From: an uncultured Candidatus Saccharibacteria bacterium
GTDB lineage: Bacteria > Patescibacteriota > Minisyncoccia > Phycocordibacterales > PALSA-1337
DNA length: 64,000 nucleotides
Direction: 5' to 3'
Assembly (NCBI GenBank): GCA_964558375.1
Contig: CAZLCD010000001.1
Coordinates: forward strand, 209,160-273,159
Of the stretch, positions 11,401 through 56,898 are shown piece after piece. Under the pieces are notes generated by a model. The model saw only the letters and a program-made list of their open reading frames with translations. It made no database searches and had not been told where the DNA came from. Within the stretch, counting starts at the first letter, position 1. Every line of letters begins with the position of its first letter. Position numbers and translations under genes: made by a program.

Positions 11401-12011
11401 CAGCCCCAGTATCTAGCTTTATTTTTAATGGTAATGATTTGTATTTCTATGGAGGTACCACTATAAGTAGGATCAGAAATATTTTAATTGGAGAGATTAC
11501 AAATACTCCATCCATCTCTCTACCTGTAACAAACCCAGATCTTTTAAATACAGAAGATAGCCTTCCTGTAAACGCCTCCTGCTCCACCCGTCTAAACAGA
11601 TGCTCAACTGGTTCAGTCTCCGGTAGAACCTCCAACACTACTCATAACTTATGGACTTGTAATGGACTCAATGGTGGAACTAATGCTTCTTGCTCTATAT
11701 TAAAAACAGCACAAGATCCAGTAAATCCTATAGTCCCTGTAGATCCTTTACCTCTCCAAGCTCCTTTAACCCCAACCTACACTCCAGCATACACACCAAC
11801 TCATACTCCAACTACATACGTATACAAGAAACCAGCAACCCCTGCACCCAAAGTTATATCTCCCACCCCAGACCTCCCACCCTCCCCATCCTTCGAACCT
11901 CTAGACTTTATACCCACCGACTATATTCAGATATTACTCGACTTGATCAAACAATTCTTCATTGATCTTGTGGAGAGGATTAAGAGGGGAGTAGATAGAA
12001 TAATTGGATAG
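8451..12011 (+). CDS. secreted multi-domain protein: signal/TM, LamG (Laminin_G_3-like) lectin domain, FN3 domain, beta-propeller-like core, 4-Cys module, conserved C-terminal tail domain
   Basis: N-terminal hydrophobic segment, then 'LVGHWTFDEGSGTTAGDSSG..NGTL' through 'IDDTRIYDRALSAVEISELYNQG' (LamG). 'APSIPANLVATSVSATQNNLSWDAS..GVTGYKVYRG' is FN3. 'CSTRLNRCSTGSVSGRTSNTTHNLWTCNGLNGGTNASCS' is the Cys module. The C-terminus reads '...PDLPPSPSFEPLDFIPTDYIQILLDLIKQFFIDLVERIKRGVDRIIG'. Confidence 0.85.
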   Translation: MINHQVKSSYAIAIISILFFCALFVVNFARKEIAKINFVAYIPEARTLLAQAGGSLSDGLVGHWTFDEGSGTTAGDSSGAGNNGTLVNFPSDGSGWVDGYFGKALKFNGTNTYVNLPKILANKTQFTISMRARFDGATDFQGALMGHSNGGFYIRKAGSCNSIITWVVNSLSTNVGASLNGSPSSGIACDSWQMHTFTMQTNGTFSYYIDGEFIKSATHPSWDSFNASHDNRIGQYAGSGYVWNGLIDDTRIYDRALSAVEISELYNQGTPNEVVEVSTADREAPSIPANLVATSVSATQNNLSWDASTDNVGVTGYKVYRGTTDIGNTTNPTFQDTNVPSDNSSVYTTSIYTVLAYDAQNNRSNKSASASATFQSANTENPANVAQNLNGLTLGTNLRIDNLGAPLKGNTQEHQVMYKTNDGHRHLQMYYDTFGASPIDVVDIDLENAKVVKSSLERNVGRVGTRCHVFYPANNKMYIGSSDPGSFSEFDPTTGATKYISAVKYKGAYHCEIGDDGWIYIGQITAGVVKGAGLERYNPTTGVWQDLGVIDPAFNGALQYAYTLGADNRYVYISLGQLPWYLAVYDTQATSNKIKIYFKENGDTNSNISKGADGKWYYTKYHLGETPYKRMYKFENGIPVEVSSTPVLDQWYQQSNVISDKSAFKQVFNTEVNFDKANSNSENGGTVEISWKTDSGSWQSATVNGLSQVARTIKRLYPWPGREDKFLGWASEYGLVFLYDASSKDIQSLGYPTRSLYDAVFVGPIIYISGYTAITMKYDPSKPWTLSASTLDPKSTSVNPYIFYGQYGKYHYYSTLGSDGMLYIATHHERGSVGGEIAWYNLSSGASASLREPFLDYDVSDLKSALNGTKIVYSSSKDKLFIFDVATKRIEREITPIPGNMEIDKIFETEPGIIFGIYDTKYFKANIQTGEIIYIKDLGGRAFPGIPAYDRRLVKGPDGYAWLFIDDKLSRINPVDGTIQKIMTAPVSSFIFNGNDLYFYGGTTISRIRNILIGEITNTPSISLPVTNPDLLNTEDSLPVNASCSTRLNRCSTGSVSGRTSNTTHNLWTCNGLNGGTNASCSILKTAQDPVNPIVPVDPLPLQAPLTPTYTPAYTPTHTPTTYVYKKPATPAPKVISPTPDLPPSPSFEPLDFIPTDYIQILLDLIKQFFIDLVERIKRGVDRIIG

Positions 12012-12025
12012 ATAATCTGATATAA
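11757..12025 (+). repeat. family 3' tail repeat, copy 1: Pro/Thr linker 'TPTYTPAYTPTHTPT.Y.YKKP', the 'PDLPPSPSFEPLDFIPTDYIQILLDLIKQFF..' domain, and the shared downstream 'tagataatctgatataataaa'
   Basis: DNA is about 85% identical over roughly 255 nt with 17307-17580 and 22507-22765. A diverged copy lies at 56650-56898. Copies 1 and 2 also share about 20 nt of intergenic sequence after the stop codon. Confidence 0.85.
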
Positions 12026-12039
12026 TAAAATGCAAATGT

Positions 12040-15000
12040 ATGAATAGATTTTTAAAAATAATTTTACTTGTTACAATCACTGTTTCTTCAGTATCATCTA
12101 TAAATATTTCTACCGCATCTGCTAGTCTCACTGATGGCCTCGTAGCTCACTATACTTTCGATGACAATACAAATGACTCTGCTGGAACAAACAACGGTAC
12201 TGCATCAGGTGGACCAAGTTATGTAGAGGGTAAAGTGGGGAAGGCACTGCAGTTTGACGGAACCAACGACTATATAACTCTCAGTAACACTTCAGCAGCA
12301 GACATGACAACAAATAACTTCACAGTTTCTCTGTGGCTTAAAACAAATACAACAGCAACAACTCAGTATAGGTTAATAAGCAAAAGAGGTAGTGATGGGT
12401 ATGAGATCTATCTTGGTTCCGGACAAAATGGTCTCGCTGCATACTGTGATACTACTGGAGGTGGATGTTTAAATGATAATAATCTTGGAACGGCGAGCGT
12501 GAGAGATATGAAGTGGCATCATGCTGTAGTTGTGTTTGACCGTAGTGGAAATATGACTGGATATGTTGACGGTAATGTTGGTTCAAGTCCATCAAATATC
12601 TCAGCTGCAGTAGGATCTATGACAGTTGCTCAAAATCTAATGATTGGTCAATATAGTAATGGGGGTGGTGACTATTTCAACGGCACCCTCGACGACGTCC
12701 GCGTCTATAACCGGGCTTTGTCTGCTGATGAAATAATTCAATTGTACAATCAAAGTTCTGATTCCACACCAGATATTCCTGTAGAAGAAGTGCCTGATGA
12801 TACTCCAACGGATCCAACCTCAACTCCAACCCAATATAACCTATCTGTTTTAATGAGTGGTTCTGGTAATGGATCTATATCCGGTACTGGTATTTCATGT
12901 GGTACTGATTGTAGTGAAGTTGTAAATTCAGGTACGCAAGTAACGCTTACGGCTTCTCCAGCAAATAGTTCAAGTATTTTTTCTGGGTGGAGTGGAGGTG
13001 GGTGTTCCGGTACAGGAAACTGTGTAGTCACAGTCTCTTCAGACAAAACAGTAACTGCAACATTTACAACTCAACCATTAGTAATAGATGGTAAAAATAC
13101 AGTTACCCAATCAATGTTTTATACAAAAAACGGTTTATATAATGGATATGTTCGTGACAATACAGGATTCCATCCTTTTGTAGCAGATTCATTTCCAGGA
13201 CACTATATTAAAGCTGCAGATTTAAAAGGTATTAGTCAAGCATCAATCATTCCATTGGACCAGACATATTATGGTGATAATCTTGGAAATCAAGTTAATG
13301 GTTATCCCGCTAGTGAAGCAGCAGTAAAGCTCTCAGTTGGTGGAGATTCAATTTCTCTTGATTTGGTTAATATTGAATATGGAGTCTATGTGATTAGATT
13401 GGTTGGTAGGGTAAATCAACCTACCATTCCACGTATCAGGAAACCCCTCTATGTTCATTTAAAAATAAACGATGGACCGAATGGTGAAGTGAATGATTAT
13501 CGAATGAGGGTACTGTATTCTAATAACCTAGAAGAAACTGGCAGAATATTCTTTAATGCTCTAAAACCAAATAATAATCTTCATGCGGAACTTTTTGTTG
13601 GTCCAGGCAGTCAAGAAGATTTATTAATACACAGAATAGATTTTTTTGATGCGCTAGCCGATATACAGAAAAAAGCTGTGAAGACCTCAGCGACTACATA
13701 TACAGCAGAAGAAAAATCTTCTGCTCAGACTCAGGGTAAAAAACTAATAGGTCTAGGTACACGCTCATCAGATTGCGGCTTCTTTGGGATAGATTATTGC
13801 GGAGATAATATTTTTTGGCAATGGTTCAATGGTGGCTACACAACGACTCCAGCTGTGTCTTCTGCAGAAACTCGTCGACAAAGAGATGATATTATCTGGA
13901 ATGCTTTACCACCACTAAATGCCATGACAGCTGGTATAGATGGTACATACAATGCTTATGATAAATGGCCAAATGGTATGACGACTGCAGAGGTTGTCGA
14001 ACAATATGGGAAGTGGGAACTCGATCCGATAGTTACAAATCAGCAATATATCTATCAATACTATGACAGACCTTGGAAAATAGTTAATAAAAAATTGAAC
14101 CTAGAATATACCTTAGAAGATTACAAGGCTCACAAACCCCTACCCGATCCGTACCCTTTTAAAGATGATGGAAGTGGTGTTTATTTTCCAGCATCAACCC
14201 ATGACAGTCCAGGTACATATCAATTCATTATTGCTCCACTCATACTACAGAGAATACAAGGTCAATACTCAACTTCTTTTTTTGATCCAGCTGGTGGGCC
14301 GGGACTCAATTTACCATACAGGTATTTTTTGACTAATGATGAAAAAGTTGCAAGAGATACAGCTCTTGCCTTGGTCAGATTTTCTTCACAATGGCCAGCA
14401 TTTCAGTTTGAAGCTCAAGACCTTGCTTACAATAGCGCTCTTCCAGAGCTAGTTTTTAATGGAGCTTGGCGATGGACCAATGCTCGTATTGGTAAGGTTG
14501 TAGGTATAAAAGAAGACGAAATCCAAGGTTATCTCTATGCCTATGACTATCTTTTTGATTATATTAAAAATAATCAGGAATTAGCAGACGCTGTGCACAG
14601 ATATATACCATGGGTTCAAACCCCCGATGATATTATTGAACTGATCGATACTCATTTTGTTAAATCTTTAAAAAATGATATTAGTAATAAAAGAGTAATT
14701 TTTACAAAGCCCCTATTGATCGACCTTGTTCTTCAAGATACAGCGATAGAGCAGACGGAAAGCCCAATGGATATTTCAAAAATAATTAACTTCATTCATC
14801 CTCTCACTACTTCACTTAAAAATCACTATAGCAACTCCTTTACTCAAAATGGCACTATGTTCATAGGGTCATCTTTCTATGTTATCGGAGAATCTTCGGC
14901 ATTTATTAATATGCTTGACCCAATGACGCGCTACAAGGATTCGACTGGGAAATCTATTCCGTATGATCTGACTAATCTTGATTTGTTTCCAAAGGTTAGG

Positions 15001-17562
15001 GAATATTGTAATACTTTTTCTGATTATACAGTGGCGGGAGGTTACGAACCATCTTTTGGTGATGCCGCAGATACTATCTATGAAAAACGCCAGCTAAATC
15101 CAGGATTGGTTTCCCAAATTAAAAATATGTGGAGATTCTGTAGGAATCCCAAAGCCGCTTGGTTGCTTGTTAATGTGGTCGGAAGAACTGATCAAAGTAA
15201 TACTGAATGGTCTTCTGCTCAGTCGGCAGCTAATAATGTTCGTGATCCTAGAATTTCTTCTAATTCAAGAACATTAAATGGTCTAGGTCTAGGTATATTA
15301 GAGAGTGGCGTTAGTTCAAATGACTATAGAGATAAACGAGCGGTAATGGTTAGAACCGGTAGTGGTTATGGGCATGAACACCACGATGCTCTAGACCTTA
15401 GCTGGTTCGCTCTTGGACTTCGAATGGGAACTGATTATGGACAGAGGAATGAAGGAAACTTATATACCGTACCCAATGATGAAGCTTCGAATACTCACAA
15501 TGTCCTAGAGGTTGATGGTTTAAAGCATCCATTGAGAGCGACTGATGGTTGGCCATCAGGAAGTTTCTCTGCTTCAGATGCGTGGATATCAGTTTTTGCC
15601 CCAGAAAATGGAGCTCAATATATCTCTGCTCAATCAAAATCAGCTGACCATACCAATGTTAATATTTTCAGGCGAGATACTTCACTTATAGATATAGACG
15701 ATAAGAACTCCTATGTATTCGATGTCTTTAGAGTTGGTGGTGGACAAATGCACACATGGTCTTTCCATGGAGCTGATACATCAGGAGAATCTGGCGGTCT
15801 ACAAGTTAATGTGCCTATGAACTCGACTCTAGATAGTGATGCTAGTCAGTATCTTAGAAAACATGCAGAGGGTACTAGAACACAGGGTGTGGCAACTAAT
15901 AAAATTGAAGCAACATGGAGATTAGGTAGGACTTCAAATACTGCAAATCTTAACAATGCTGATGGTGCATCACTCTCAGTTACAACTGTCGCTGCAGAGC
16001 AAAGTATGCTGGGTTCTGATTACAATGCTTCCTCCCCAAGAAAATATACCAAGACTACTTTATTCGACAGATCGGGTGATAAAGTCATGATGGGTAATCT
16101 GTATTCTGCATACTACAAAATTAATGAACCAAATCTTTTTGTACAATCAGGAACTGGTGGTAGTTATAACTCTGGAAGTAATAAGCAAGATGTATATCCT
16201 GCTATAATTGAAGCTTACGCTGGTTCATCTCTTATCTCCGCTAGTCAATCACTTTCTGTTACTCCGAATGAATCTGATGCTCTAAAAGCTGTTGCGCTTT
16301 CAGTCACTACTACAAATGGTAATAATGATATATTGTTTTCAGATGGAAGAAATACAACTCGTACGATCGGAGGGGGTACTATGACCGCCAATGCGCAATT
16401 TGGTTACTATTCATCAAATGCTGGAAATATGAGAATGATGACTATTGTTGGTGGTACAAATCTAACAAAAGGAAATTATTCTCTAAAACCATCCGTTGCA
16501 GTAAATTCCTCTACTATCCAAAGTGTTAATTATCGTGATCGTAAGATATATACATCTTCAAAATTTCCAAAAACTCTTATCAATCGCGACTTTCATATAA
16601 AAAATACTGATCACGAAACTTCATACAAAATAATCAATATTGTTGACTCTGGCTCTGGTAGTATACTTACCTTCGAAAAACCTGCAGATATCGGGGTTCT
16701 TAAGATTGATGGCCTGTCAGGTAACACCATTACATCCTCAGATAGTTGGATTTTAGACTATACACCTAACAGAAATAGGGGATTAACCGGTACAAATGAA
16801 TCTGGTTCTAAAGTTTTTAAGATTAAAAAGACGGCAAGTAATGGCGGAAGTTCAAATACAATTTCTGGAGCATCTGTTTCTCAAGCTGATTTTACTGATA
16901 TTGATGGAGATGGAATCTCTCAGGTACTTGTATATGATTTTGGCATAGGCGATACAATAGAGGTTGCATCCGCCTCAACTTTAAAAAGAGTAAATAACAA
17001 TGATATATATCAACTAACAAGTAACACACCTCTGTCTGTAACTTTACCTGGTACTGGAAGCTTGGAAATTAGTTCAAATTCTTCTAGTTGGACAAAGATT
17101 AACAGTACCTTATCTACAAATTCAGTAACAGCGAACATTACTGAATCACAACTACTATCAGGTATCAAATATGTTAGAGCTTCATCAAACCCTGGTATTA
17201 ATCTTACATTAGAAGAGTTGAAAAAATTAGAGGACCAAGCTCTTCTTAATGTACCTCTTAATCCACTTACCCCATTACCTAACCCAGATCCTTTTCCTCT
17301 CTCCCCGCTAAATCCTACTACTCCAACCTACACTCCCGCATATACACCAACCCATACTCCAACACCCTATACCTACAAGAAACCAGTAACTCAAGCACCC
17401 AAGGTTATCTCTCCAACCCCAGACCTCCCACCCTCCCCATCCTTCGAACCTCTAGACTTCATACCCACCGACTATATACAGATATTACTCGACCTTATTA
17501 AACAATTCTTCATCGATCTTATAGAAAGGATTAAGAGGGGAGTAGATAGGATAATTGGATAG
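12040..17562 (+). CDS. secreted multi-domain protein: signal peptide, LamG domain, InlB-B-repeat-like Cys domain, large alpha/beta core (possibly heparinase II/III-like polysaccharide lyase; weak call), conserved C-terminal tail domain
   Basis: 'MNRFLKIILLVTITVSSVSS' is the signal peptide and LamG ends '...LDDVRVYNRALSADEIIQLYNQS'. 'SGSGNGSISGTGISCGTDCSEVVNSGTQVTLTASPANSSSIFSGWSGGGCSGTGNCVVTVSSDKTVTATF' fits the divergent InlB B-repeat pattern. 'YGHEHHDALDLSWFALGL' recalls heparinase II/III motifs with low confidence. The C-terminal tail is identical in type to that of 8451..12011. Confidence 0.85.
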   Translation: MNRFLKIILLVTITVSSVSSINISTASASLTDGLVAHYTFDDNTNDSAGTNNGTASGGPSYVEGKVGKALQFDGTNDYITLSNTSAADMTTNNFTVSLWLKTNTTATTQYRLISKRGSDGYEIYLGSGQNGLAAYCDTTGGGCLNDNNLGTASVRDMKWHHAVVVFDRSGNMTGYVDGNVGSSPSNISAAVGSMTVAQNLMIGQYSNGGGDYFNGTLDDVRVYNRALSADEIIQLYNQSSDSTPDIPVEEVPDDTPTDPTSTPTQYNLSVLMSGSGNGSISGTGISCGTDCSEVVNSGTQVTLTASPANSSSIFSGWSGGGCSGTGNCVVTVSSDKTVTATFTTQPLVIDGKNTVTQSMFYTKNGLYNGYVRDNTGFHPFVADSFPGHYIKAADLKGISQASIIPLDQTYYGDNLGNQVNGYPASEAAVKLSVGGDSISLDLVNIEYGVYVIRLVGRVNQPTIPRIRKPLYVHLKINDGPNGEVNDYRMRVLYSNNLEETGRIFFNALKPNNNLHAELFVGPGSQEDLLIHRIDFFDALADIQKKAVKTSATTYTAEEKSSAQTQGKKLIGLGTRSSDCGFFGIDYCGDNIFWQWFNGGYTTTPAVSSAETRRQRDDIIWNALPPLNAMTAGIDGTYNAYDKWPNGMTTAEVVEQYGKWELDPIVTNQQYIYQYYDRPWKIVNKKLNLEYTLEDYKAHKPLPDPYPFKDDGSGVYFPASTHDSPGTYQFIIAPLILQRIQGQYSTSFFDPAGGPGLNLPYRYFLTNDEKVARDTALALVRFSSQWPAFQFEAQDLAYNSALPELVFNGAWRWTNARIGKVVGIKEDEIQGYLYAYDYLFDYIKNNQELADAVHRYIPWVQTPDDIIELIDTHFVKSLKNDISNKRVIFTKPLLIDLVLQDTAIEQTESPMDISKIINFIHPLTTSLKNHYSNSFTQNGTMFIGSSFYVIGESSAFINMLDPMTRYKDSTGKSIPYDLTNLDLFPKVREYCNTFSDYTVAGGYEPSFGDAADTIYEKRQLNPGLVSQIKNMWRFCRNPKAAWLLVNVVGRTDQSNTEWSSAQSAANNVRDPRISSNSRTLNGLGLGILESGVSSNDYRDKRAVMVRTGSGYGHEHHDALDLSWFALGLRMGTDYGQRNEGNLYTVPNDEASNTHNVLEVDGLKHPLRATDGWPSGSFSASDAWISVFAPENGAQYISAQSKSADHTNVNIFRRDTSLIDIDDKNSYVFDVFRVGGGQMHTWSFHGADTSGESGGLQVNVPMNSTLDSDASQYLRKHAEGTRTQGVATNKIEATWRLGRTSNTANLNNADGASLSVTTVAAEQSMLGSDYNASSPRKYTKTTLFDRSGDKVMMGNLYSAYYKINEPNLFVQSGTGGSYNSGSNKQDVYPAIIEAYAGSSLISASQSLSVTPNESDALKAVALSVTTTNGNNDILFSDGRNTTRTIGGGTMTANAQFGYYSSNAGNMRMMTIVGGTNLTKGNYSLKPSVAVNSSTIQSVNYRDRKIYTSSKFPKTLINRDFHIKNTDHETSYKIINIVDSGSGSILTFEKPADIGVLKIDGLSGNTITSSDSWILDYTPNRNRGLTGTNESGSKVFKIKKTASNGGSSNTISGASVSQADFTDIDGDGISQVLVYDFGIGDTIEVASASTLKRVNNNDIYQLTSNTPLSVTLPGTGSLEISSNSSSWTKINSTLSTNSVTANITESQLLSGIKYVRASSNPGINLTLEELKKLEDQALLNVPLNPLTPLPNPDPFPLSPLNPTTPTYTPAYTPTHTPTPYTYKKPVTQAPKVISPTPDLPPSPSFEPLDFIPTDYIQILLDLIKQFFIDLIERIKRGVDRIIG

Positions 17563-17580
17563 ATAATCTGATATAATAAA
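17307..17580 (+). repeat. family 3' tail repeat, copy 2
   Basis: See copy 1. The identity is visible directly, for example in 'cccagacctcccaccctccccatccttcgaacctctagacttcatacccaccgactatat'. Confidence 0.85.
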
Positions 17581-17584
17581 GTGA

Positions 17585-19756
17585 ATGATAAAATTATTTA
17601 AAATTACTTCTGTTTGCATTTCGATTGCTATAGTCTTCTTATTATCCCTACCCACCACGACCCATGCCCTCACCCTCACTAGTAGCTCAAATAACCTAGG
17701 TCTCAATGCTGGACTTGTAGGATGGTGGACCTTCGACGGTAAAGACGTGGTCAATGGTAGAGCTTTAGACAAGTCAGGAAATGCAAATCATGGAACTCTC
17801 ACCAACATCTCTACTTCCACCTTCTATACCACAGGCAAGATCGGGCAGGGGTTTAGGTTTGATGGCACCAACGACTATATAACTCTCAGTAACACTTCAG
17901 CAGCAGACATGACAACAAATAACTTCACAGTTTCTCTGTGGCTTAAAACAAATACAACAGCAACAACTCAGTATAGGTTAATAAGCAAAAGAGGTAGTGA
18001 TGGGTATGAGATCTATCTTGGTTCCGGACAAAATGGTCTCGCTGCATACTGTGATACTACTGGAGGTGGATGTTTAAATGATAATAATCTTGGAACGGCG
18101 AGCGTGAGAGATATGAAGTGGCATCATGCTGTAGTTGTGTTTGACCGTAGTGGAAATATGACTGGATATGTTGACGGTAATGTTGGTTCAAGTCCCTCAA
18201 GTATATCAGCTGCAGTAGGCTCTATGACGGTCGCACAAAGTCTAATGATTGGTCAGTATAGTAATGGTGGCGGTGACTATTTCAACGGCTCCCTCGACGA
18301 CGTCCGTGTCTATAATCGAGCACTCTCAGCCACTGAAATCCGCCAACTCTACAACCAAGGAGCAGCCACCAAGCAAGGTGTAGCCCAGAAGGTAACAGCA
18401 ACTTCTACCTGTAGTACAGGACTATCCTGTGGGCTCGTCGGCTACTGGTCCTTTGATGGTAAAGATGTAGTAAACGGTAGAGCTCTAGATAAGTCAGGTA
18501 ATGCAAATCATGGAACTCTTACAAACATCTCCACCTCTACTTTCTATACAACAGGCAAGATCGGGCAGGGGTTTAAGTTCGATGGGGTGAATGATACCGT
18601 AAACATAGCTACAAACATGTTTGCCAACAGGACTGAGTTTTCATTGATGGTGTGGACCAAAAAAACTAAAGGAACTACAGGTTCTGTATTTTCTTCTTCT
18701 AACGGTGGTCCATATTGGAGATTCACTTCTGCAACCACAATATTGCATTATATAGAAAAATCAGACTGTACAGGATCTTCGAGAGGTGTAGCATATCCAG
18801 ATGATGGCAAGTTTCATTATATTGGTTTTACGGTCAGTACAGCTGGACTCGTTAGATTTTATGTAGATGGAGTGGTAGTTGACTCTTATACATATCCTAG
18901 TTGGAATTATGCATGTGCAGATGCTACAGATTGGCGTAGTATCGGTTCTTACGCAGTATCCAATTATTTCAACGGCCTCCTCGACGACGTCCGCATCTAC
19001 AACCGCGCGCTCTCAGCAACCGAAGTCACCCAGCTCTACAACCAAGGTGCAGCAACCAAACAAGGTGTAGCACAGAAGGTAACAGCCACCTCCACCTGTA
19101 GTACAGGACTATCCTGTGGGCTCGTAGGCTACTGGTCTTTTGATGGTAAAGATGTAGTAAATGGAGTAGCGAGAGACAAGTCAGGAGGTAACAATCATGG
19201 TAACCTAGTGAATATCGCCACTTCTACATTCTATGTACCAGGCAAGATCGGGCAGGGGTTTAAGTTTGATGGGGTGGATGATTATGTGAGTGTAGGAAAT
19301 AATACGGTTTTGGCTCCGACAACTGCGGTAACTATTTCTGCATGGGTAAAGCCGTTAAGAAAGGTTGATTCCAGTCACTACTCGGCAATTACATCAAGAG
19401 GTTCTGTTAATTATTTATTTATGATAAGACACGGTGGTGTTGTAGTTTTTTATCTTCCAGGGGTGCAGAACTGGGTTACTAATGACGGCGCAAAAGATCT
19501 CTTTGACGGCCAATGGCACCATGCTCTTGTGACTTATGATGGTAGCTTCCAGCGATTATATATCGATACTACACTTATAAGTTCTAGTGCTATAACAGGA
19601 AATATCACATCAAACTCGAATACAACTCTTATTGGTAGAGATACTACTGGTGCATCAAATTTTAATTTCAACGGCCTCCTCGACGACGTCCGTATCTACA
19701 ACCGTGCTCTCTCCGCTACCGAAGTCCGTCAACTCTACAACCAAGGTAAAAAATAA
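17585..19756 (+). CDS. secreted protein made of three tandem LamG domains; it lacks the family C-terminal tail
   Basis: 'MIKLFKITSVCISIAIVFLLSLPTTTHA' is the signal peptide. Three LamG units each end 'LDDVR[IV]YNRALSATE[IV].QLYNQG'. Linker 'AATKQGVAQKVTATSTCSTGLSCGLVGYWSFDGKDVVNG' occurs twice. The first LamG shares about 350 nt of near-identity with 12040..17562. Confidence 0.85.
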   Translation: MIKLFKITSVCISIAIVFLLSLPTTTHALTLTSSSNNLGLNAGLVGWWTFDGKDVVNGRALDKSGNANHGTLTNISTSTFYTTGKIGQGFRFDGTNDYITLSNTSAADMTTNNFTVSLWLKTNTTATTQYRLISKRGSDGYEIYLGSGQNGLAAYCDTTGGGCLNDNNLGTASVRDMKWHHAVVVFDRSGNMTGYVDGNVGSSPSSISAAVGSMTVAQSLMIGQYSNGGGDYFNGSLDDVRVYNRALSATEIRQLYNQGAATKQGVAQKVTATSTCSTGLSCGLVGYWSFDGKDVVNGRALDKSGNANHGTLTNISTSTFYTTGKIGQGFKFDGVNDTVNIATNMFANRTEFSLMVWTKKTKGTTGSVFSSSNGGPYWRFTSATTILHYIEKSDCTGSSRGVAYPDDGKFHYIGFTVSTAGLVRFYVDGVVVDSYTYPSWNYACADATDWRSIGSYAVSNYFNGLLDDVRIYNRALSATEVTQLYNQGAATKQGVAQKVTATSTCSTGLSCGLVGYWSFDGKDVVNGVARDKSGGNNHGNLVNIATSTFYVPGKIGQGFKFDGVDDYVSVGNNTVLAPTTAVTISAWVKPLRKVDSSHYSAITSRGSVNYLFMIRHGGVVVFYLPGVQNWVTNDGAKDLFDGQWHHALVTYDGSFQRLYIDTTLISSSAITGNITSNSNTTLIGRDTTGASNFNFNGLLDDVRIYNRALSATEVRQLYNQGKK

Positions 19757-19768
19757 TCTAAATGAATT

Positions 19769-22762
19769 ATGAATAGATTTTTTAAATTAATTTTATTTCT
19801 CACTATAATTATCTCAGTATCTCTTTCTACCAACATACCTAACGTATCCGCTAGTCTCACAGATGGACTAGTATCACACTATACTTTCGATGAAGGAAGC
19901 GGAACCACTGCAGGGGATTCTGCTGGGTCGAATGCAGGGACACTTACAAATGGACCGACTTGGGCTACGGGGAAAGTGGGAAGTGGGGCACTACAGTTTG
20001 ATGGAACGGATGATTTTGTAAAGTTAACTTCTCGCATTACATCCCCAGGTACTTTTTCTATGAGTCTATGGTTCTATCCAAAAACGGTATCTTATGCTGG
20101 AGGAGTTTTGATCGGTGGTTTAAATGCAAATTCTCAGATCACTGCAGGTCCTATTGTTACAGTAAGAGACAATGGTGCAGCGGCAACTGATGTAGCTATA
20201 TTAAAACCACTTTTTGCCAATAAATGGCAACATCTAGCTGTGACCCGTGGTGCGAGTAATGCTATTTTAATTTATCTAAATGGAGAAAATGTAACCACAG
20301 GCACTCCGACTTTTTCTATCACAAAATATTGGGATTATATCGGTAGTCGCTCTGATGGTCTATATCCTTTCTCTGGTTCCCTCGACGACATCCGCATCTA
20401 CAGTCGTGTTCTAGATTCTAATGAAATAGAAGAATTAAATGATATGGGTGCAGTTGTAGCTTCTGGGGACACGGAAGCACCTTCCATACCCTCTGGTCTC
20501 ACAGCTTCTCCCACATCACAATCAAAAATCAATCTATCTTGGACTGCATCTACAGATAACACTGCCGTAACAGGATACAAGATATACAGAGGTGGTTCAG
20601 AAATAGCTACCACACCAAATACTTCCTATGAAGATACAGGACTATCTCCTAGTATTCCATACACCTACACAGTACTAGCCTATGATGCTATAGGTAATCA
20701 AAGTGAAAAATCCTCTCCTACCTCTGCAACTATACAATCAGATACTCCTGTCGCAGATACACCTCCACCGGCTGACAATACAGTATGGTACGTCTCACCT
20801 ACAGGAACATCAGCTGGAACTGGTTCCATTACTAGTCCTTGGGATCTACAGACAGCTTTTACTAATACAGGTAAGAAGATAAAACCGGGACATACTGTAT
20901 GGATGCGGGGAGGGGTTTATGGGCTCGGAGGAAATACAGTTTTTGGTCATCGATGGGATGGGTTGAGTGGAACAAGTGGTAATCAAATTACTTTTAGAAA
21001 TTATGCAAATGAGCGAGCTATTATAAATGGATCTATCGCTGGAAGTGGAAATTACCTTACTTTCTTTGGATTTGAAATAATGAATTCAAATCCTGTGCGT
21101 AAGATCAGTACTTTTGATAAGCCAGGAGGGATAAATATAGGTGGTAAGGGTAACAGAGTGATCAATCTGGTTATACATGATGTAGGACATTCACCAATTG
21201 GAGGAATATCCGAAGGAGAAATTTACGGAGTAATAATGTGGGGTAGCGGTATATACGATACAAGCAATCCATTATATCCAAATGGTCTAGCCCGAGGATC
21301 TGGTATGTACCTCCAGAATCGTAATGGAAACTCTTATGTTTCCGATTCAATTTCTTTTAAGCAATTTACGACTGGAATGAAAGCCTATGCACAAGAAGGA
21401 CATGTTAATGGATTTAAATTTGAAGGCAATGTAGTGTTCGATAACAATGATATAAACCTTGAAACTATCGCAATTACAAATCCAGCTAAGGATATTTCCT
21501 GGATAGAAAATTACACTTACACAGATCCTCTTGATATTAAAAAGCCAGCACAGCTAGGATGGGTTTCAAACGATATGATAGATGCAATAGTCAAAGATAA
21601 TTATTTTGTAAATGGAAGTAATCCTAAAGGAGCACTCTTTGTTCATAAATGGAAAGATTTAAATGTGACCGGTAATACTTTTATCTCTCAACGACAAGCT
21701 GCTAACGTTCCAGTATTGTCTTTCGATATGCCTGACACCACGACTTCACATACCTGGAACTCCAACAAATATTACGGAGGCAATTCATCTTCTCTATTTT
21801 TCCTCGACAATGTTGCTAAGACCTTCGATCAATGGAAATCCACCACCGGCTTCGACTCCAACAGCACCTACTCATCATCTCTACCTAGTACCAATGCCAT
21901 TTTCGTAAGACCAAACAAATACGAACAAGGAAGAGCACATGTCATTGTCTATAACTGGGAAAACAAAAACCAAGTAAATGTAAACATTTCAAATATAGGA
22001 CTTCAAACAGGAGACAACTTTGCTATATTCGATGTACAGAACTTCCTAGGAGAACCAGTAATGAGAGGAGTGTATAATGGTCAGTCAGTAGATCTTCCTA
22101 TGAACCTCACCACCATCACTCCTCTCATCGGTAGACAAAACATTACACATTTCAATCCAAACACTCATACAGACAAGAAATTCAATGTCTTTGTTGTCTT
22201 AAAGACCAATGGAGTCTATTCTCAACAGAACTATGTGATCCCTCCACCTCCAGCAAACCTTCCTCCACCCACAGTAGAGATACCCAATCTACCAATTGAC
22301 TTACTAGTGAATGGATCTTGTTCTACACGGTTGAATAGATGCTCAAACGGCACAGTATCTGGTAGAACCTCCAACACTACCCACAATCTCTGGACTTGTA
22401 ATGGTTTAAATGGAGGTACCAACGCTTCTTGCTCTACCTTAAAGACAGTAGAAGATCCTGTAAATCCTATAGCACCTGCAGATCCTTTACCGACTCCTCC
22501 TTCTGCACTAAACCCCCTAACCCCAACCTACACTCCAGCATACACCCCAGCACACACTCCAACACCCTATACCTACAAGAAACCAACCACTTCCACACCC
22601 AAACCAATAGCAGGAACCCCTGATCTCCCACCCTCCCCGTCCTTCGAACCTCTAGACTTCATACCCACCGACTATATACAGATATTACTCGACCTAATTA
22701 AACAATTCTTCATTAATCTTATGGAGAGGATTAAGAGAGGGGTGGAGAGGATAATTGGATAA
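19769..22762 (+). CDS. secreted multi-domain protein: signal peptide, LamG, FN3, parallel beta-helix-like core (pectate-lyase-fold candidate), 4-Cys module, conserved C-terminal tail domain
   Basis: 'MNRFFKLILFLTIIISVSLS' is the signal peptide and LamG ends 'LDDIRIYSRVLDSNEIEELNDMG'. 'APSIPSGLTASPTSQSKINLSWTAS..AVTGYKIYRG' is FN3. Repetitive 'G..N..I..' turns are consistent with a beta-helix. The Cys module is 'CSTRLNRCSNGTVSGRTSNTTHNLWTCNGLNGGTNASCS'. The tail reads '...PDLPPSPSFEPLDFIPTDYIQILLDLIKQFFINLMERIKRGVERIIG'. Confidence 0.85.
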   Translation: MNRFFKLILFLTIIISVSLSTNIPNVSASLTDGLVSHYTFDEGSGTTAGDSAGSNAGTLTNGPTWATGKVGSGALQFDGTDDFVKLTSRITSPGTFSMSLWFYPKTVSYAGGVLIGGLNANSQITAGPIVTVRDNGAAATDVAILKPLFANKWQHLAVTRGASNAILIYLNGENVTTGTPTFSITKYWDYIGSRSDGLYPFSGSLDDIRIYSRVLDSNEIEELNDMGAVVASGDTEAPSIPSGLTASPTSQSKINLSWTASTDNTAVTGYKIYRGGSEIATTPNTSYEDTGLSPSIPYTYTVLAYDAIGNQSEKSSPTSATIQSDTPVADTPPPADNTVWYVSPTGTSAGTGSITSPWDLQTAFTNTGKKIKPGHTVWMRGGVYGLGGNTVFGHRWDGLSGTSGNQITFRNYANERAIINGSIAGSGNYLTFFGFEIMNSNPVRKISTFDKPGGINIGGKGNRVINLVIHDVGHSPIGGISEGEIYGVIMWGSGIYDTSNPLYPNGLARGSGMYLQNRNGNSYVSDSISFKQFTTGMKAYAQEGHVNGFKFEGNVVFDNNDINLETIAITNPAKDISWIENYTYTDPLDIKKPAQLGWVSNDMIDAIVKDNYFVNGSNPKGALFVHKWKDLNVTGNTFISQRQAANVPVLSFDMPDTTTSHTWNSNKYYGGNSSSLFFLDNVAKTFDQWKSTTGFDSNSTYSSSLPSTNAIFVRPNKYEQGRAHVIVYNWENKNQVNVNISNIGLQTGDNFAIFDVQNFLGEPVMRGVYNGQSVDLPMNLTTITPLIGRQNITHFNPNTHTDKKFNVFVVLKTNGVYSQQNYVIPPPPANLPPPTVEIPNLPIDLLVNGSCSTRLNRCSNGTVSGRTSNTTHNLWTCNGLNGGTNASCSTLKTVEDPVNPIAPADPLPTPPSALNPLTPTYTPAYTPAHTPTPYTYKKPTTSTPKPIAGTPDLPPSPSFEPLDFIPTDYIQILLDLIKQFFINLMERIKRGVERIIG

Positions 22763-26227: not shown

Positions 26228-26243
26228 ATGTTAATATTATAAC

Positions 26244-27117: not shown

Positions 27118-27822
27118 ATGAAAAAACACACAGATAGTATTATTATCGCCACAGCAATTATCTTTTCTGGAGTACTCATCTCTTTCTCTCTGGTTTCAAT
27201 GAATGGTTTTTCTGTATCGTCAGCCCCTTCTACAAACAAACAAATAGACAAACAAGAAGAAGCGCCAAGAGCTGTTACTAGGACAGACCACATACAAGGA
27301 GACATAAATGCCAAACTTGTGATCGTAGAATACTCCGATACCGAATGCCCTTTCTGCAAAAACTTTCACTCGACCATGAATAGAATCATAAATGAATACG
27401 GTCCAAGCAAAAAAGTCGCATGGGTATATAGACATATGCCTATCAAGCAACTCCATGCCAAGGCTCCAAAAGAGGCTGAAGCTACAGAATGTGCAGCTGA
27501 GCTTGGTGGAAATGGTAAATTTTGGGAATATACCAACAAACTCTATGAGATCACACCTTCAAACGATGGACTAGACCCAGCTGAACTTACAAAGATCGCC
27601 GAACAAGTAGGTCTCAACACAATGCGTTTCAATTCTTGTCTTTCAAGTGGCAAGCATGCAAAGACAGTGGATGCGGATTATAAAGATGGGGTACTGGCTA
27701 TAGGAGGTAATCCAGGAACACCTTTCAGTGTCATTATCACAAAAGACGGGAAGAAAGTTCCCATCAACGGCGCTCAGCCATACGAAGTTGTGAAAGAAAT
27801 GATCGATGGATTATTAAAATAA
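27118..27822 (+). CDS. membrane-anchored DsbA-like thiol:disulfide oxidoreductase (thioredoxin fold, CPFC active site)
   Basis: An N-terminal TM segment is followed by 'EYSDTECPFCKNFH'. Confidence 0.8.
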   Translation: MKKHTDSIIIATAIIFSGVLISFSLVSMNGFSVSSAPSTNKQIDKQEEAPRAVTRTDHIQGDINAKLVIVEYSDTECPFCKNFHSTMNRIINEYGPSKKVAWVYRHMPIKQLHAKAPKEAEATECAAELGGNGKFWEYTNKLYEITPSNDGLDPAELTKIAEQVGLNTMRFNSCLSSGKHAKTVDADYKDGVLAIGGNPGTPFSVIITKDGKKVPINGAQPYEVVKEMIDGLLK

Positions 27823-47299: not shown

Positions 47300-47407
47300 G
47301 GGGGTATTATAGCAAATTTAAAAAGTTATCCCCAAGTTCTTAAGATTTGATAAAGATTTTATGAATTTAGTTGTTGCATTTATATGGTGGATTGAGATAA
47401 TTCACCT

Positions 47408-48232
47408 ATGGAACACAATAAGATTATTATATTTAAAGGTAAAAACGTTCGCAGGACACTCCATAATGATGAATGGTGGTTATCGGTGGTGGATGTTATA
47501 GAAGTTTTAACCGATAGTGTTAAGCCAAGAGACTATTGGTATAGGTTAAAAGATCGTGTAATCGATGAAGATAAAATCGAGTTGTCGACACTTTGTCGAC
47601 AACTGAAATTAGAGTCCACTGATGGTAAATTTTATGAAACTGACTGTGCCAACACTGAAGGCATTTTTCGTATCATTCAATCTATCCCTTCTCCCAAAGC
47701 AGAACCATTTAAAAGATGGCTAGCCAAGGTGGGCTATGAAAGAATGCAGGAAATAGAAAATCCCGAACTAGCCACAAAACGCACTAGAATGTTATATAAG
47801 TTGAAAGGTTATAGCGATGATTGGATAGAAAAAAGAATGAGAGGTATAGCTATTCGCGAAGAACTTACAGATGAATGGAAAGATAGAGGAGCGCAAGAAC
47901 ATAAAGATTATGAAATATTAACTGCAGAAATTTCAAAAGCTACATTTGGAATTACTCCAAAACAATACAAAGAATTAAAGGGATTAAAAAGAGAAAATCT
48001 TCGAGATCATATGAATGATTTTGAACTTATTCTCACTATGCTTGGTGAACGTTCAACCACAGAGATTCATAGAACTGAAGATTCTAAAGGTGTTAAAAAA
48101 TTAAAAGAAGATACAATGATTGGCGGAGAAATAGCTGGTGGCGCACGTAGACAACTTGAAAAGAAATTAAAAAAATCAATAGTTTCAGAAAAGAATTTTA
48201 AAGACCTAAATGCCAAAAGACTCAAAACTTAA
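47408..48232 (+). CDS. DNA-damage-inducible protein D (DinD)-like / Bro-N domain protein
   Basis: 'IIIFKGKNVRRTLHNDEWWLSVVDVIEVL' is a Bro-N-like N-terminus. The C-terminal half ('LYKLKGYSDDWIEKRMRGIAIREELTDEWKDRGAQ...') resembles E. coli DinD. Confidence 0.65.
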   Translation: MEHNKIIIFKGKNVRRTLHNDEWWLSVVDVIEVLTDSVKPRDYWYRLKDRVIDEDKIELSTLCRQLKLESTDGKFYETDCANTEGIFRIIQSIPSPKAEPFKRWLAKVGYERMQEIENPELATKRTRMLYKLKGYSDDWIEKRMRGIAIREELTDEWKDRGAQEHKDYEILTAEISKATFGITPKQYKELKGLKRENLRDHMNDFELILTMLGERSTTEIHRTEDSKGVKKLKEDTMIGGEIAGGARRQLEKKLKKSIVSEKNFKDLNAKRLKT

Positions 48233-48836: not shown

Positions 48837-48853
48837 GCTAGTATAATAAAACT

Positions 48854-49087: not shown

Positions 49088-49116
49088 AGTTTTAGGAAAA
49101 GGGGTTCTTCAAAAAT

Positions 49117-50016: not shown

Positions 50017-50040
50017 CAAAAAAATAAGTAAATAAATACC

Positions 50041-50736: not shown

Positions 50737-50757
50737 AAAATATGCTAAAATATCTCC

Positions 50758-52974: not shown

Positions 52975-53013
52975 AAATAAGAAAACCTATGCTATAATTT
53001 AGCGAAACATTTC

Positions 53014-56000
53014 ATGAATAATTTGATAAAAACGTCTCATGCATTTATCATCATAATTTCTCTTTTTCTTGCAAGCTTAAATATTATATTTTGGTCTTCG
53101 GAACAATTGAGTATTGTTGCTAAAAATATTCCCATAGAATCCATAAAACAAACCGCGGCGGTGGGGGATTTTGATTCTAGTAAAATTCATCATGAGACTT
53201 TCGATAGTGGAGGATCGACTGGTATAGTAGGGCAAGCTAAGGTATTTGCTTCACTTACAGATAAAGTAAACACTCCAATAAATACCTCTACTCTTACCGG
53301 TGGCTTCACTATTTCTTTTTGGGCGAATCCTACAGCTCTAGCTTTTAATAAGTTTGCATATTCTGCAAGTGATCAGGGCGCAGACCGATTTTATTTTAGA
53401 CAAGATACAGGAACTAGTGCTGTAGCTGGACTCGGTAGTTGGAATCCCGCTATCAGTTCTGCTTTTTCTACAGATAAGTGGACTCACTATGTCATTACTT
53501 TAGATGGCACTACAGGTAAGATTTACAAAAATAATTCAGTCGTAGCTTCCAATTCAAATATTACCGTCGCTCTACCAAACTCTGTTATTGCTATAGGTGC
53601 AAGTAAAGATTCCACAGCAAATACTTTTTTCACAGGTTCTTTAGATGATTTCCGTATCTACAATCGAGCTCTTACTGTAACTGAAATAGATGATCTATAT
53701 ATACTTGGTGGAGGTGCAGTTGCAGAAGTAGATACCACCCCTCCCTCTGTACCTGCAAATGTTACAGCTACAGCAATTTCTTCATCTCGGATAGATCTTT
53801 CATGGTCTGCATCTACCGGTGGAGCCACAGGGTATCGTGTCTATAAAGATGGAAGTCAGATAACTACAACTGCTAATACCTCATATTCCAATACAGGACT
53901 TACTCCAGCTACTTCGTATTCATATACAGTCGCTTCATATGATGACGATTCAAATGTATCAGCTCAAAGCTCTTCTGTTTCTGCAAGCACACCTGCTGGG
54001 TCTGGTTCACCGATAGATGGACAATGTTCAACAACTTTAAATACATGCACAACCCCAACCCCCGCAACAAACATAAGAGCAGACGCTAATAATAATCTTT
54101 GGACTTGTCCTGGAACAAATAATGGCAATCCAGCATCTTGTTCATCACCTATTACAACTGGTGGCAGACAGCCTACAGTTTCTGGTAACGAGGTAACTGC
54201 ATATTCTTGCGAACAGGTAGATGTGCAGGCGGCTTTGAATATCGCTCAGACAGGGAATATTGTAAATATTCCAGCTGGAACATGTACTTGGACAAGTACT
54301 TTTAATTTCAATAAAGCAGTTACTCTAAAGGGGGCAGGGGTAGATCAAACAACGCTTATAAATGGTGTATCACACACTGGAATTTCTAGTTGTGGTGGAT
54401 GTACAAGACCACAGATTATTATCATGAGTTCAAGTAATTCTGGGTTAACTAGAATTACAAATATGACTATCGATGGTGGTTCGGGAACTATAGATGGACA
54501 AAATAATGGTTTTTTTCTAGTCTACGGAAGTTCTAAAAATTGGAGAATAGATCATATGCGTTTTCGCGTGACTCGTACTTCTGCTATAACCGCGTATGCT
54601 CCGGGCGGTCTCATAGACAATAATCGTTTTGATATTATTGGCTGGTATGTGAGTATCTATGGTAAAAATGGAGGAGGAGAAAATGGTGATCCTGTATGGG
54701 CTCAGGATACTGAACTCGGTACAGATAATGCCTTATATATAGAAGATAATACATTCTATTCTTCCACGCCAAGTCTCGGTCTTGATGGATGGATGGGACA
54801 ACGTGTAGTTGTAAGGTTTAATAATTTTAATAATTCCCGAGCAGGTAATCATGGAACAGAGAGCGGTAATCGTCTACGAGGTTCTAGGAGTTACGAAATA
54901 TATAATAATACTTTCAACAAAACTAATGGTGATAATTATAGCGATGCTGTAGGTATTCGTGGTGGTGTAGGGGTCGTATTTAATAATACCTTGTCAGGAT
55001 CTTTTACAATGGTTGGTTCTATGCACAACTATCGTGATCTACACCCATATTCACCTTGGGGTCAATGTGATGGAACGAGTCCTTTCGATTTAAATGATCT
55101 AGAAGATGATAATTCTACCCTAAGAGTTTATGATACAGGGACTTCTGATACAAATTCAGTATATTCTAATAATAATATTACACTTACAGATTCAGATAAA
55201 TCATGGACTGCTGGTCAATGGATTGGTTATAGTATTTGGAATACAACAAAAAATCTAAAAAGTCCCATAACATCCAATACAGCCACAACGATAACTAGTC
55301 CCACAGATAACAACAATAATAGCGCGCCATTATCTTGGAGTAATGGTGATAGTTTCAAAATAATACGCGCATCTATGTGTATTGATCAAGTCGGTAGAGG
55401 TAAGGGAGTTTTGATTTCTGGTGGACAAAGTAATCCAACCCCAAGAGCTTGGACACAACAAGAATTAGATCCAACATATATCTGGAATAATACTTTAAAT
55501 GGATCTTATCGTGCTATAGGTGATACATCGGTTCATATTGTAGAAGGTAGAGATTATTATAATAACACTTGTAAGCCCGGGTATAGTCCATACACGTATC
55601 CCCACCCCCTTACAGGACTCTCACCTCAAACTGTACCCTTGAATTGTAATGGTGGTACACCAGCGCAAACCTATAATCTCTCTGTTTCAAAACAGGGAAC
55701 TGGTTCAGGTACTGTGTCTGGAGGTTCTATTTCTTGCGGAAGTATTTGTTCAATGACAGGTTCCGGAAATATCTTACTCCTAGCTACTCCAAGCAACGGC
55801 TCAGCATTTACTGGTTGGTCAGGCGCTTGTACTGGTTCTAGTAGTATTTGTTCAGTATCTCTTTCTTCTAACCAAACTGTTACTGCAACCTTTGGTCCAG
55901 GAACTCTAGTCGGCACCCCCGCTCAATGTTCCACCACTCTAAACTCCTGTTCAACTGGTACCTTAAGATCTGGTAGTCAAAGTAGCAATTCTACCCACAA

Positions 56001-56898
56001 CCTCTGGACCTGTGATGGTCTAAATGGAGGAGCTCAAGCTTCTTGTTCTGTTCTTAAAACACTTCCTCCTACACCTGGTCAATGTTCTACTACCCTAAAC
56101 CTTTGTACTTCTGGAAATCCAGAAGGTATAACTGCCAACACTACTCATAATATATGGACTTGTGGTGGTACAAACGGTGGTGAAGCTATCTCTTGCTCAA
56201 AACTCATATCCAACATAGACCTAACTCCAACCACCAACTTGGTTACGGTAAACAAAACAGGATCAGGATCAGGTACGGTTACGGGTACAGGTATCTCTTG
56301 TGGATCTGACTGTACTCATGTATTACCTATAAACACCGCTATTACCCTCACAGCTACTCCAAACAGTGGTTATGTGTTCAGTAGTTGGTCTGGAGGATAT
56401 TGTTCTGGTAGTAATAATACTTGTACTATTACTCCTACTACAGACGCTACTGTTATAGCAAGGTTTAGTATTATTCCTACCGCAATAAATGGTCTATGTT
56501 CCACTACTCTAAACTCTTGTACTACTGGTAGATTTTCTGAAAGATCAGATAACACGACTCACTCTCTCTGGTCATGCCAAGGTACAAATGGAGGAACTAA
56601 TGTAGATTGTTCTAGTGTAAAACCTGCGGTACCACCTCCTGTTTATAATCCTCCAGTTCAACCTGTAAACTATACTCCTACTCCTTATGTCTATAAGAAA
56701 CCAGTAACTACTCCAAAGTTAATTCAACCAACCCCAGATCTCCCACCCTCCCCATCCTTCGAACCTCTAGACTTCATACCCACCGACTATATAAAGATAT
56801 TGCTCAATCTTACCAAAGATTTGGTTCTTAATTTTGTACAGAGAATTACAAGAGGTGCTCAGAAAGTGATAGAGGAGATAAAAATGCTAAGTAGCTAA
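53014..56898 (+). CDS. giant secreted multi-domain protein of the LamG family: signal, LamG, FN3, Cys module, beta-helix-like core, InlB-B-repeat, Cys module x2, InlB-B-repeat, Cys module, diverged family C-terminal tail
   Basis: LamG ends 'LDDFRIYNRALTVTEIDDLYILG'. FN3 is 'PPSVPANVTATAISSSRIDLSWSAS..ATGYRVYKDG'. There are four 'CSTTLN.C...(8-12)..TH.[LI]W[TS]C.G.NGG....C[S]' modules and two 'GSG.V.G..ISCGS.C...........L.ATP..G..F..WSG.C.........VTA.F' modules. The tail is '...YVYKKP...PDLPPSPSFEPLDFIPTDYIKILLNL...'. Confidence 0.85.
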   Translation: MNNLIKTSHAFIIIISLFLASLNIIFWSSEQLSIVAKNIPIESIKQTAAVGDFDSSKIHHETFDSGGSTGIVGQAKVFASLTDKVNTPINTSTLTGGFTISFWANPTALAFNKFAYSASDQGADRFYFRQDTGTSAVAGLGSWNPAISSAFSTDKWTHYVITLDGTTGKIYKNNSVVASNSNITVALPNSVIAIGASKDSTANTFFTGSLDDFRIYNRALTVTEIDDLYILGGGAVAEVDTTPPSVPANVTATAISSSRIDLSWSASTGGATGYRVYKDGSQITTTANTSYSNTGLTPATSYSYTVASYDDDSNVSAQSSSVSASTPAGSGSPIDGQCSTTLNTCTTPTPATNIRADANNNLWTCPGTNNGNPASCSSPITTGGRQPTVSGNEVTAYSCEQVDVQAALNIAQTGNIVNIPAGTCTWTSTFNFNKAVTLKGAGVDQTTLINGVSHTGISSCGGCTRPQIIIMSSSNSGLTRITNMTIDGGSGTIDGQNNGFFLVYGSSKNWRIDHMRFRVTRTSAITAYAPGGLIDNNRFDIIGWYVSIYGKNGGGENGDPVWAQDTELGTDNALYIEDNTFYSSTPSLGLDGWMGQRVVVRFNNFNNSRAGNHGTESGNRLRGSRSYEIYNNTFNKTNGDNYSDAVGIRGGVGVVFNNTLSGSFTMVGSMHNYRDLHPYSPWGQCDGTSPFDLNDLEDDNSTLRVYDTGTSDTNSVYSNNNITLTDSDKSWTAGQWIGYSIWNTTKNLKSPITSNTATTITSPTDNNNNSAPLSWSNGDSFKIIRASMCIDQVGRGKGVLISGGQSNPTPRAWTQQELDPTYIWNNTLNGSYRAIGDTSVHIVEGRDYYNNTCKPGYSPYTYPHPLTGLSPQTVPLNCNGGTPAQTYNLSVSKQGTGSGTVSGGSISCGSICSMTGSGNILLLATPSNGSAFTGWSGACTGSSSICSVSLSSNQTVTATFGPGTLVGTPAQCSTTLNSCSTGTLRSGSQSSNSTHNLWTCDGLNGGAQASCSVLKTLPPTPGQCSTTLNLCTSGNPEGITANTTHNIWTCGGTNGGEAISCSKLISNIDLTPTTNLVTVNKTGSGSGTVTGTGISCGSDCTHVLPINTAITLTATPNSGYVFSSWSGGYCSGSNNTCTITPTTDATVIARFSIIPTAINGLCSTTLNSCTTGRFSERSDNTTHSLWSCQGTNGGTNVDCSSVKPAVPPPVYNPPVQPVNYTPTPYVYKKPVTTPKLIQPTPDLPPSPSFEPLDFIPTDYIKILLNLTKDLVLNFVQRITRGAQKVIEEIKMLSS

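Follow-up and report, generated by a model that had tools for sequence, protein, structure and literature searches.

A four-cysteine module recurring in surface proteins of a Candidatus Saccharibacteria bacterium and its extracellular repeat family

What is the short cysteine-bearing segment that recurs in three long surface proteins of an uncultured Candidatus Saccharibacteria bacterium, and what might it do for the proteins that carry it? The proteins are encoded in a 64,000-nucleotide (nt) stretch of contig CAZLCD010000001.1 (GenBank assembly GCA_964558375.1, positions 209,160 to 273,159 of the forward strand), the whole of which is referred to as the window. The original prediction, made from the letters of this DNA, described six copies of a four-cysteine module in three proteins and assigned it to no known family. 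The six copies are real and lie far beyond chance. Judging from profile searches, the module is a genuine member of a very large extracellular repeat family that is not curated in the resources searched, and the fold predicted for it is a small all-beta domain that would be held together by two disulfides.

The six copies in the window

Translation and a six-frame regular-expression search located six in-frame copies of the module, all on the + strand, spread over three long open reading frames (ORFs). Each copy is ~46 residues long and follows the pattern C-x6-C-x(16-18)-W-x-C-x10-C; the spacing of five residues originally given between the first and second cysteines is actually six (C-S-T-T-L-N-x-C). 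A profile built from 139 modules of other organisms (the outside-only profile) was run against the six-frame translation of the window. It recovered the predicted copies in the three proteins, matching exactly six sites with scores of 43.4-60.9 bits and domain E-values of 1.5e-12 to 5e-18, and no further site in the six frames scored above 6 bits. The motif C-x-x-x-L-N-x-C likewise occurs at six sites only, all on the + strand. A loose cysteine regular expression also matches out-of-frame sequence at 2789-5716, but the profile does not. The profile envelope reaches ~5 residues upstream (P-[VI]-N-G-x) and ~4 residues downstream of the pattern first described.

The first two copies occupy the same position in two related hosts. 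Protein A (8451-12011, + strand, 1186 amino acids (aa)) consists of a hydrophobic anchor or signal, a LamG_3 domain, an fn3-like region, a core of ~650 aa, the module, a linker rich in proline and threonine (P/T-rich), and a C-terminal tail shared with other proteins of the window. Copy 1 (11565-11705, aa 1039-1085; 53.5 bits, domain E 1.1e-15) is preceded by the central core and followed by the linker and tail. Its true Cys-to-Ser core is 11580-11696; the interval first reported for it, 11578-11695, is shifted by 2 nt from the reading frame, and the other five of the six intervals translate to the peptide described. Protein D (19769-22762, + strand, 997 aa) has a signal peptide, LamG_3, fn3, a core of ~500 aa, the module, the P/T-rich linker and the shared tail. 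Its copy 2 (22307-22444, + strand, aa 847-892; 53.5 bits) is 90% identical to copy 1 at the protein level.

The remaining four copies are in protein E (53014-56898, + strand, 1294 aa), which reads anchor or signal, LamG_3, fn3, module, a core of ~550 aa, Flg_new_2 (an InlB-B-type repeat), module, module, Flg_new_2, module, linker and tail. Copy 3 (54010-54153, aa 333-380; 43.4 bits, E 1.5e-12) is the most divergent of the six and lies between fn3 and the central core. Copy 4 (55921-56058, aa 970-1015; 45.7 bits) comes after the first InlB-B-type repeat and is in tandem with copy 5 (56068-56208, aa 1019-1065; 45.4 bits), which directly precedes the second. Copy 6 (56485-56625, aa 1158-1204; 60.9 bits, E 5e-18) follows the second repeat and precedes the proline-rich linker and the tail. 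The best Flg_new_2 match, at aa 1078-1154, is thus flanked by copies 5 and 6. The module is not itself a divergent InlB B-repeat (Flg_new_2, PF18998): isolated modules give no Flg_new_2 match, and the modules of protein E lie outside the stretch matched. A hydrophobic N-terminal signal or anchor is found in 3/3 of the host proteins. No Pfam or PDB sequence relatives were found for the three central cores; for the ~650-aa core of protein A there is a weak Kelch hint only.

Across the six copies 13 columns are invariant, and C6, C13, W30, C32, G34, G38 and C43 are kept in 6/6. The copies in proteins A and D have 25 differences over 117 nt, 20 of which fall on third codon positions, and only 2 amino acids change, which shows the module peptide to be under purifying selection between the paralogous copies. 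The modules were also considered as targets of a diversity-generating retroelement. This candidate was rejected: the substitutions between copies have no adenine bias and are mostly synonymous.

The host proteins have further features in common with their neighbors. Proteins A, B (12040-17562), D and E end in a shared C-terminal cassette (11784-12008, 17335-17559, 22535-22759 and 56671-56895) made of the P/T-rich linker (TPTYTPAYTPTHTPTPYTYKKP) and a conserved tail, PDLPPSPSFEPLDFIPTDYIQILLDLIKQFF..RIKRG, with 77-87% nucleotide identity between the copies. Protein B carries the tail without a four-cysteine module. Pfam has no match to the tail, and it is absent both from 148 module homologues of other organisms and from the 120 genome loci inspected; it may serve this lineage as an anchoring or sorting signal of its own. 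Proteins B and C (17585-19756) have a run of 114 identical residues in their LamG domains, a sign that a duplication or a gene conversion took place very recently among the tandem LamG surface-protein genes at 8451-22762.

The wider family and its predicted fold

When 1.84 billion representative proteins were searched with a profile made from the six copies, 1,034 of them matched at E<=1e-3; the number falls to 319 at E<=1e-10 and to 55 at E<=1e-30. A single protein can contain as many as 45 matched stretches. The best 150 of the 1,034 proteins contain 1,067 domain matches. Among these 681 are full-length, of which 642 have exactly four cysteines; their commonest cysteine spacing is x6/x16/x10. 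Pooling the protein modules with those from genome loci gave a conservation set of 1,185 distinct modules, and all four cysteines are kept in 1,183 of them. A profile search of this kind had been proposed from the outset as a check on the claim of novelty, which a hit to a named family or a lack of conserved cysteines in homologues would have overturned; it met no named family, and the cysteines are conserved. In the same set C6, C13, W30, C32 and C43 are 99-100% conserved and G4, G16, G34 and G38 95-97%, while most remaining columns are variable, with ~3 bits of entropy. The consensus is (P)-[VI]-N-G-x-C-x6-C-x2-G-x13-W-x-C-x-G-x-N-G-G-x4-C-S-x-x-K. The strictly fixed residues, Cys, Gly and Trp, are those expected to define a fold.

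The homologues appear to be exported proteins of very varied architecture. By a heuristic, an N-terminal signal or anchor is present in 115 of 141 homologues that start with Met. Within an array, one module mostly follows directly on the last, their envelopes being -1 to +3 residues apart. The association with LamG and InlB-B architectures seen in the window is not general in the family: among 72 proteins scanned for partner domains LamG_3 was found in 2 and CARDB in 2, and DUF285, RCC1, NHL, LRR, Big_7, PG_binding_1, Ig and TSP1 in 1 each. A separately scanned homologue, P0010, has a right-handed beta-helix partner. Another, the 521-aa metagenomic protein P0104, combines three four-cysteine modules with a thrombospondin type 1 repeat at aa 401-454 (TSP1_ADAMTS, E 3.5e-10), a pairing unusual for a prokaryotic-type protein. 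In the source databases the homologues are named "hypothetical" or after other domains.

Species genomes of GTDB were scanned with a back-translated DNA pattern derived from one sub-type of the module. The scan gave at least 120 loci; 119 of 120 were confirmed by the profile, with 389 domains among the matches listed. By record title, the lineages among the matches listed include many members of the candidate phyla radiation (CPR), DPANN archaea, Bdellovibrio-like predators, Micavibrio, diverse Proteobacteria, Bacteroidota, Acidobacteriota, Nitrospirota and Dehalococcoidia. One Woesearchaeota genome has at least 33 matches. Cultured strains are also found among the matches listed: Minisyncoccus archaeiphilus PMX.108, Paenacidovorax caeni, Cellvibrio fontiphilus and Undibacterium. 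M. archaeiphilus PMX.108 (NZ_AP038758.1), a cultured obligate parasite of a methanogen, has at least 73 profile matches at ten loci. Most of these belong to a long-loop variant of the module (compared with the window copies below), in the form of near-identical 60-residue tandem units in arrays of 22 and 20 copies, and the arrays are not mentioned in its species description or in a 2026 review. A four-module query gave no tblastn match in phage and plasmid collections.

The searches against named families agree with the original failure to assign the module. The six copies have no Pfam match even at E<=10, and 145 diverse single modules have no significant one; fn1, fn2, Sushi, EGF and TSP_1 match none of the modules in either set. 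In proteins with 12-45 copies no Pfam or NCBIfam family matches the modules, save for a summed PKD_3 score in one protein. Sequence searches of the PDB with three profiles returned nothing credible. A Foldseek search with the predicted module fold gave no significant match, the best E-values being 2.9 in the PDB and 1.9 in BFVD. No description of the module was found in the literature by topic, by organism or by literal motif strings.

The structure of a single module (copy 6) was predicted with AlphaFold2 from an alignment of the 145 diverse modules. The mean predicted local distance difference test (pLDDT) score is 95.1 and the predicted template modelling (pTM) score 0.69. The predicted fold is all-beta, with strands at residues 13-15, 17-20, 27-33 and 41-46 and bridges at 2, 5-6 and 35. 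For the tandem copies 4 and 5 the pLDDT is 95.2, the junction included. The module had been placed in linkers flanking catalytic-looking cores and InlB-B repeats; the flanking position is correct, but with a pLDDT of 95 the module is predicted to be a folded domain and not a linker.

Contacts were derived separately by mean-field direct coupling analysis (DCA) of the 1,185 modules, restricted to the columns that are not invariant. Two ladders emerge, one between strands beta2 and beta3 (17-35, 19-33, 21-31, 23-29) and one between beta3 and beta4 (33-40, 31-42, 27-46), the latter setting W30 opposite C43. An N-terminal hairpin (5-14, 7-12) sets C6 opposite C13, and tertiary couplings link 10-45, 12-45, 10-28 and 3-39/40. 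On these contacts the C6/C13 hairpin is inferred to lie over the face of a three-stranded antiparallel sheet that bears Y28, W30, C32 and C43. Two putative disulfides are probably formed in each module, as suggested by the fold prediction, the cysteine conservation and the covariation. The hairpin placed over this face favors pairing from hairpin to sheet, and the most likely arrangement would be C1-C3 and C2-C4. Patterns of cysteine loss are uninformative on the pairing; a cysteine is missing in just 2 of the 1,185 modules, and the invariant cysteines carry no covariation signal.

Proposed role, rival readings and genomic setting

The module is probably a disulfide-stapled, autonomously folding extracellular bead that serves as a connector or spacer between the working domains of surface proteins. 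In the proposed sequence of events, the host proteins would first be exported by the Sec pathway. Two disulfides would then form by oxidation of the four cysteines, for which a DsbA-type enzyme is a plausible catalyst, and would staple the hairpin to the sheet, giving a compact and stable bead. In the window proteins the beads would keep LamG, fn3, the large cores and the InlB-B-type repeats apart and hold them out from the cell, and in other organisms they would follow one another head-to-tail in long stalks. With conserved residues of a fold-defining kind, no fixed partner domain, a variable surface, abutting arrays and export signals, a structural spacer is the most likely role on sequence grounds.

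A candidate oxidant is encoded in the window. The product of 27118-27822 (+ strand) is a DsbA-like thiol:disulfide oxidoreductase (Pfam Thioredoxin_4, 5e-17; DSBA, 4e-11) with an N-terminal membrane anchor and a CPFC active-site motif. The original prediction took the cysteine content of the modules to fit this enzyme. The gene is there as described, but it has no specific link to the modules: it lies between genes for an aldolase and a 2-hydroxyacid dehydrogenase. Because it sits among housekeeping genes ~4.4 kb from the nearest module-bearing ORF (19769-22762), its protein is a plausible oxidant of the module cysteines in the sense of compatibility only.

Several observations weigh against the bead-and-spacer reading. 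The pTM of the di-module is 0.60, which makes the relative orientation of neighboring beads less certain, and a rigid rod is not demonstrated. The position of C6 opposite C13 in the hairpin is also compatible with C1-C2 and C3-C4 pairing. No DsbB or VKOR partner of the DsbA-like protein was seen in the window. Lastly, the semi-conserved residues D20, D23, T26, Y28 and N36 of the 1,185 modules might make up a binding site for a ligand or for Ca in many members.

This last point leads to the strongest rival, a possible but clearly less favored one, in which the module is a ligand-binding unit, adhesive or carbohydrate-binding, and arrays of it provide multivalent attachment to the surface polymers of host or prey. 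Contact would be made through the variable surface or through a hairpin with the semi-conserved pattern D-x-x-D-x-x-T-x-Y; these Asp, Thr and Tyr positions, and the Asn, lie outside the core. Host-attached and predatory lineages are well represented (of the ~99 genomes among the matches listed, ~40 belong to CPR, 6 to DPANN or other archaea and 7 to Bdellovibrio-like lineages or Micavibrio), the family is abundant in the obligate parasite M. archaeiphilus, with the matches at its ten loci given above, and the module co-occurs with LamG and beta-helix enzymes. This apparent enrichment is not a census, since it covers only the matches listed from a pattern of one sub-type. The strictly conserved residues, being only Cys, Gly and Trp, form a structural pattern. 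D20 is lost in the window copies and D23 in 5/6 of them, yet these copies are under purifying selection. The resemblance to a carbohydrate-binding module (CBM) that was first suggested did not hold up: the six copies have no CBM profile match at E<=10, Chitin_bind_1 appears in only 1 of 145 modules, at E=0.15, and neither Pfam nor fold searches relate the module to any CBM or lectin family.

A broader and tentative extension, rather unlikely as it stands, is that the short-loop and long-loop modules together are a structurally new disulfide-stapled superfamily and a characteristic component of the structures by which episymbiotic and predatory prokaryotes (CPR/Patescibacteria, DPANN, Bdellovibrionota) attach. 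The long arrays, such as those of M. archaeiphilus, would then be host-contacting stalks or adhesive rods.

It is improbable that the module is a divergent member of a named small-domain family such as PKD_3, fibronectin type I, Sushi, TSP1 or hevein. The 45-copy homologue P0002 has a summed PKD_3 score of 36.3 bits, but none of its stretches is individually significant, PKD_3 is absent from proteins with 14-22 copies, and 4 of 145 single modules match it, all at E>=0.018 and below significance. PKD_3 (PF16820) was rejected: no per-domain score exceeds the Pfam gathering threshold, and the best single module reaches E=0.018. There is some resemblance to the fibronectin type I module (PF00039) in the inferred layout of 2+3 strands and in the C-x-G-x-x-x-G...C hairpin. 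This family was rejected as well, with a probability of 1.6% in hhalign against nine human fibronectin type I modules and no Pfam fn1 match.

Still less probable is a metal site, in which the four cysteines coordinate an ion, as in a zinc-ribbon-like or rubredoxin-like knuckle, and form no disulfides. Four invariant cysteines in a small beta domain would suit such a site, and Zn_ribbon_recom gives sub-threshold matches to 2 of 145 single modules (E>=0.04) and a whole-protein E of 7.8e-9 in one homologue. But the C-x6-C and C-x10-C spacings are unlike paired CxxC-type knuckles, the module proteins have export signals and typical extracellular partner domains, and the loop between the first two cysteines, which varies from x5 to x17 across the superfamily, is hard to square with a fixed metal site. 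That the pattern arises by chance or from the composition of linkers rich in Ser, Thr, Asn and Gly, as the low-complexity flanking sequence might suggest, is refuted by outside-profile matches of 43-61 bits, by the invariance of Cys and Trp over 1,185 modules, by the mostly synonymous substitutions between paralogues and by the confident fold prediction.

For the window itself the result is modest: a genuine domain of a familiar general type, the small Cys-rich extracellular repeat, with a function that is inferred. Its wider use may be greater. The large surface proteins of CPR and DPANN are mostly unannotated, and the module would turn long "hypothetical" stretches of them into readable architecture; a family definition would also set the domain boundaries of the cores that the modules flank. 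The module further implies that its host organisms depend on extracytoplasmic disulfide formation. If the arrays are host-contact structures, the cultured M. archaeiphilus offers a direct test system.

The genomic setting is that of a chromosomal stretch with a G+C of 39%. Housekeeping genes in it encode TGT, FBA, RpsB, EF-Ts, RF, GyrB, ThrRS, PheRS, DnaE, RNase HII, RNase III, SMC and TrmD. The S2 protein (RpsB) has 82% identity to one named Candidatus Taylorbacteria, which indicates a CPR bacterium of Parcubacteria type. The peptide-chain release factor ORF (32592-33518) is short, at 308 aa, and its PCRF match begins at profile position 30; neither a CTTTGA frameshift site nor an in-frame upstream extension was found for it. 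A Bro-N domain protein, of a type typical of phage and virus genes, is encoded at 47408-48232, between dnaE and the RNase HII gene. At 29182-30048 lies the gene for a 288-aa protein in which an N_methyl type IV pilin N-terminal methylation motif is fused to LamG_3; from its sequence it would resemble a pilin that carries a lectin-type head. A protein of 2614 aa (588-8432) has 14 LVIVD repeats and a Peptidase_S74 domain (endosialidase intramolecular chaperone) at aa 2245-2291, followed by an acidic tail rich in Lys and Glu, and carries no four-cysteine module. In a Woesearchaeota protein (locus L007, 557-5515), 14 modules stand beside repeats that look LVIVD-like by eye; LVIVD was not called there by Pfam.

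Comparison with known domain families

The superfamily is undescribed in the family and structure resources searched, and its general kind is familiar. Knottins and hevein are, like the module, small, disulfide-rich and extracellular. The knottin resemblance proposed at first is excluded by the number of cysteines: an inhibitor cystine knot needs six, in three knotted disulfides, and the module has four (1,183/1,185). Hevein (Chitin_bind_1) has eight.

PKD_3 and PKD-like domains are, as the module is, small beta repeat domains of bacterial surface proteins, and PKD_3 has a weak local match to the module around the Y-x-W-x-C-x-G hairpin. This match spans just positions 24-49 of the 68 in the profile. 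PKD domains are ~70-90 residues long and, unlike the module, are not defined by four cysteines.

The fibronectin type I module (FN1) comes close in design. It has ~45 residues and four cysteines, a two-stranded N-terminal element on a three-stranded antiparallel sheet and an aromatic core, and is used as an extracellular bead. Size, four cysteines, the layout of 2+3 strands, the aromatic core and the use as a bead are thus common to both. The difference is at the third cysteine, where FN1 has C-x-C and the module W-x-C.

The long-loop four-cysteine repeat is homologous to the window module (hhalign probability 98.8%, E 1e-16). It was first seen through partial profile matches, is likewise uncurated, and occurs in Minisyncoccus, Woesearchaeota, Undibacterium, Paenacidovorax, Cellvibrio and Bdellovibrio. 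Its consensus is N-G-x-C-G-S-A-N-G-x6-P-x3-L-C-x2-G-x-A-S-x-V-x-G-x-G-P-W-x-W-x-C-x-G-x-N-G-G-x4-C-S-A. It differs from the window module by an insertion of ~10 residues in the loop between the first two cysteines (C-x16-C vs C-x6-C) and by a slightly shorter beta2-beta3 hairpin. All four cysteines, the Trp and the G-x-N-G-G turn align between the two, and both occur in the same extracellular tandem-array contexts. By this sequence comparison the window copies represent the short-loop branch.

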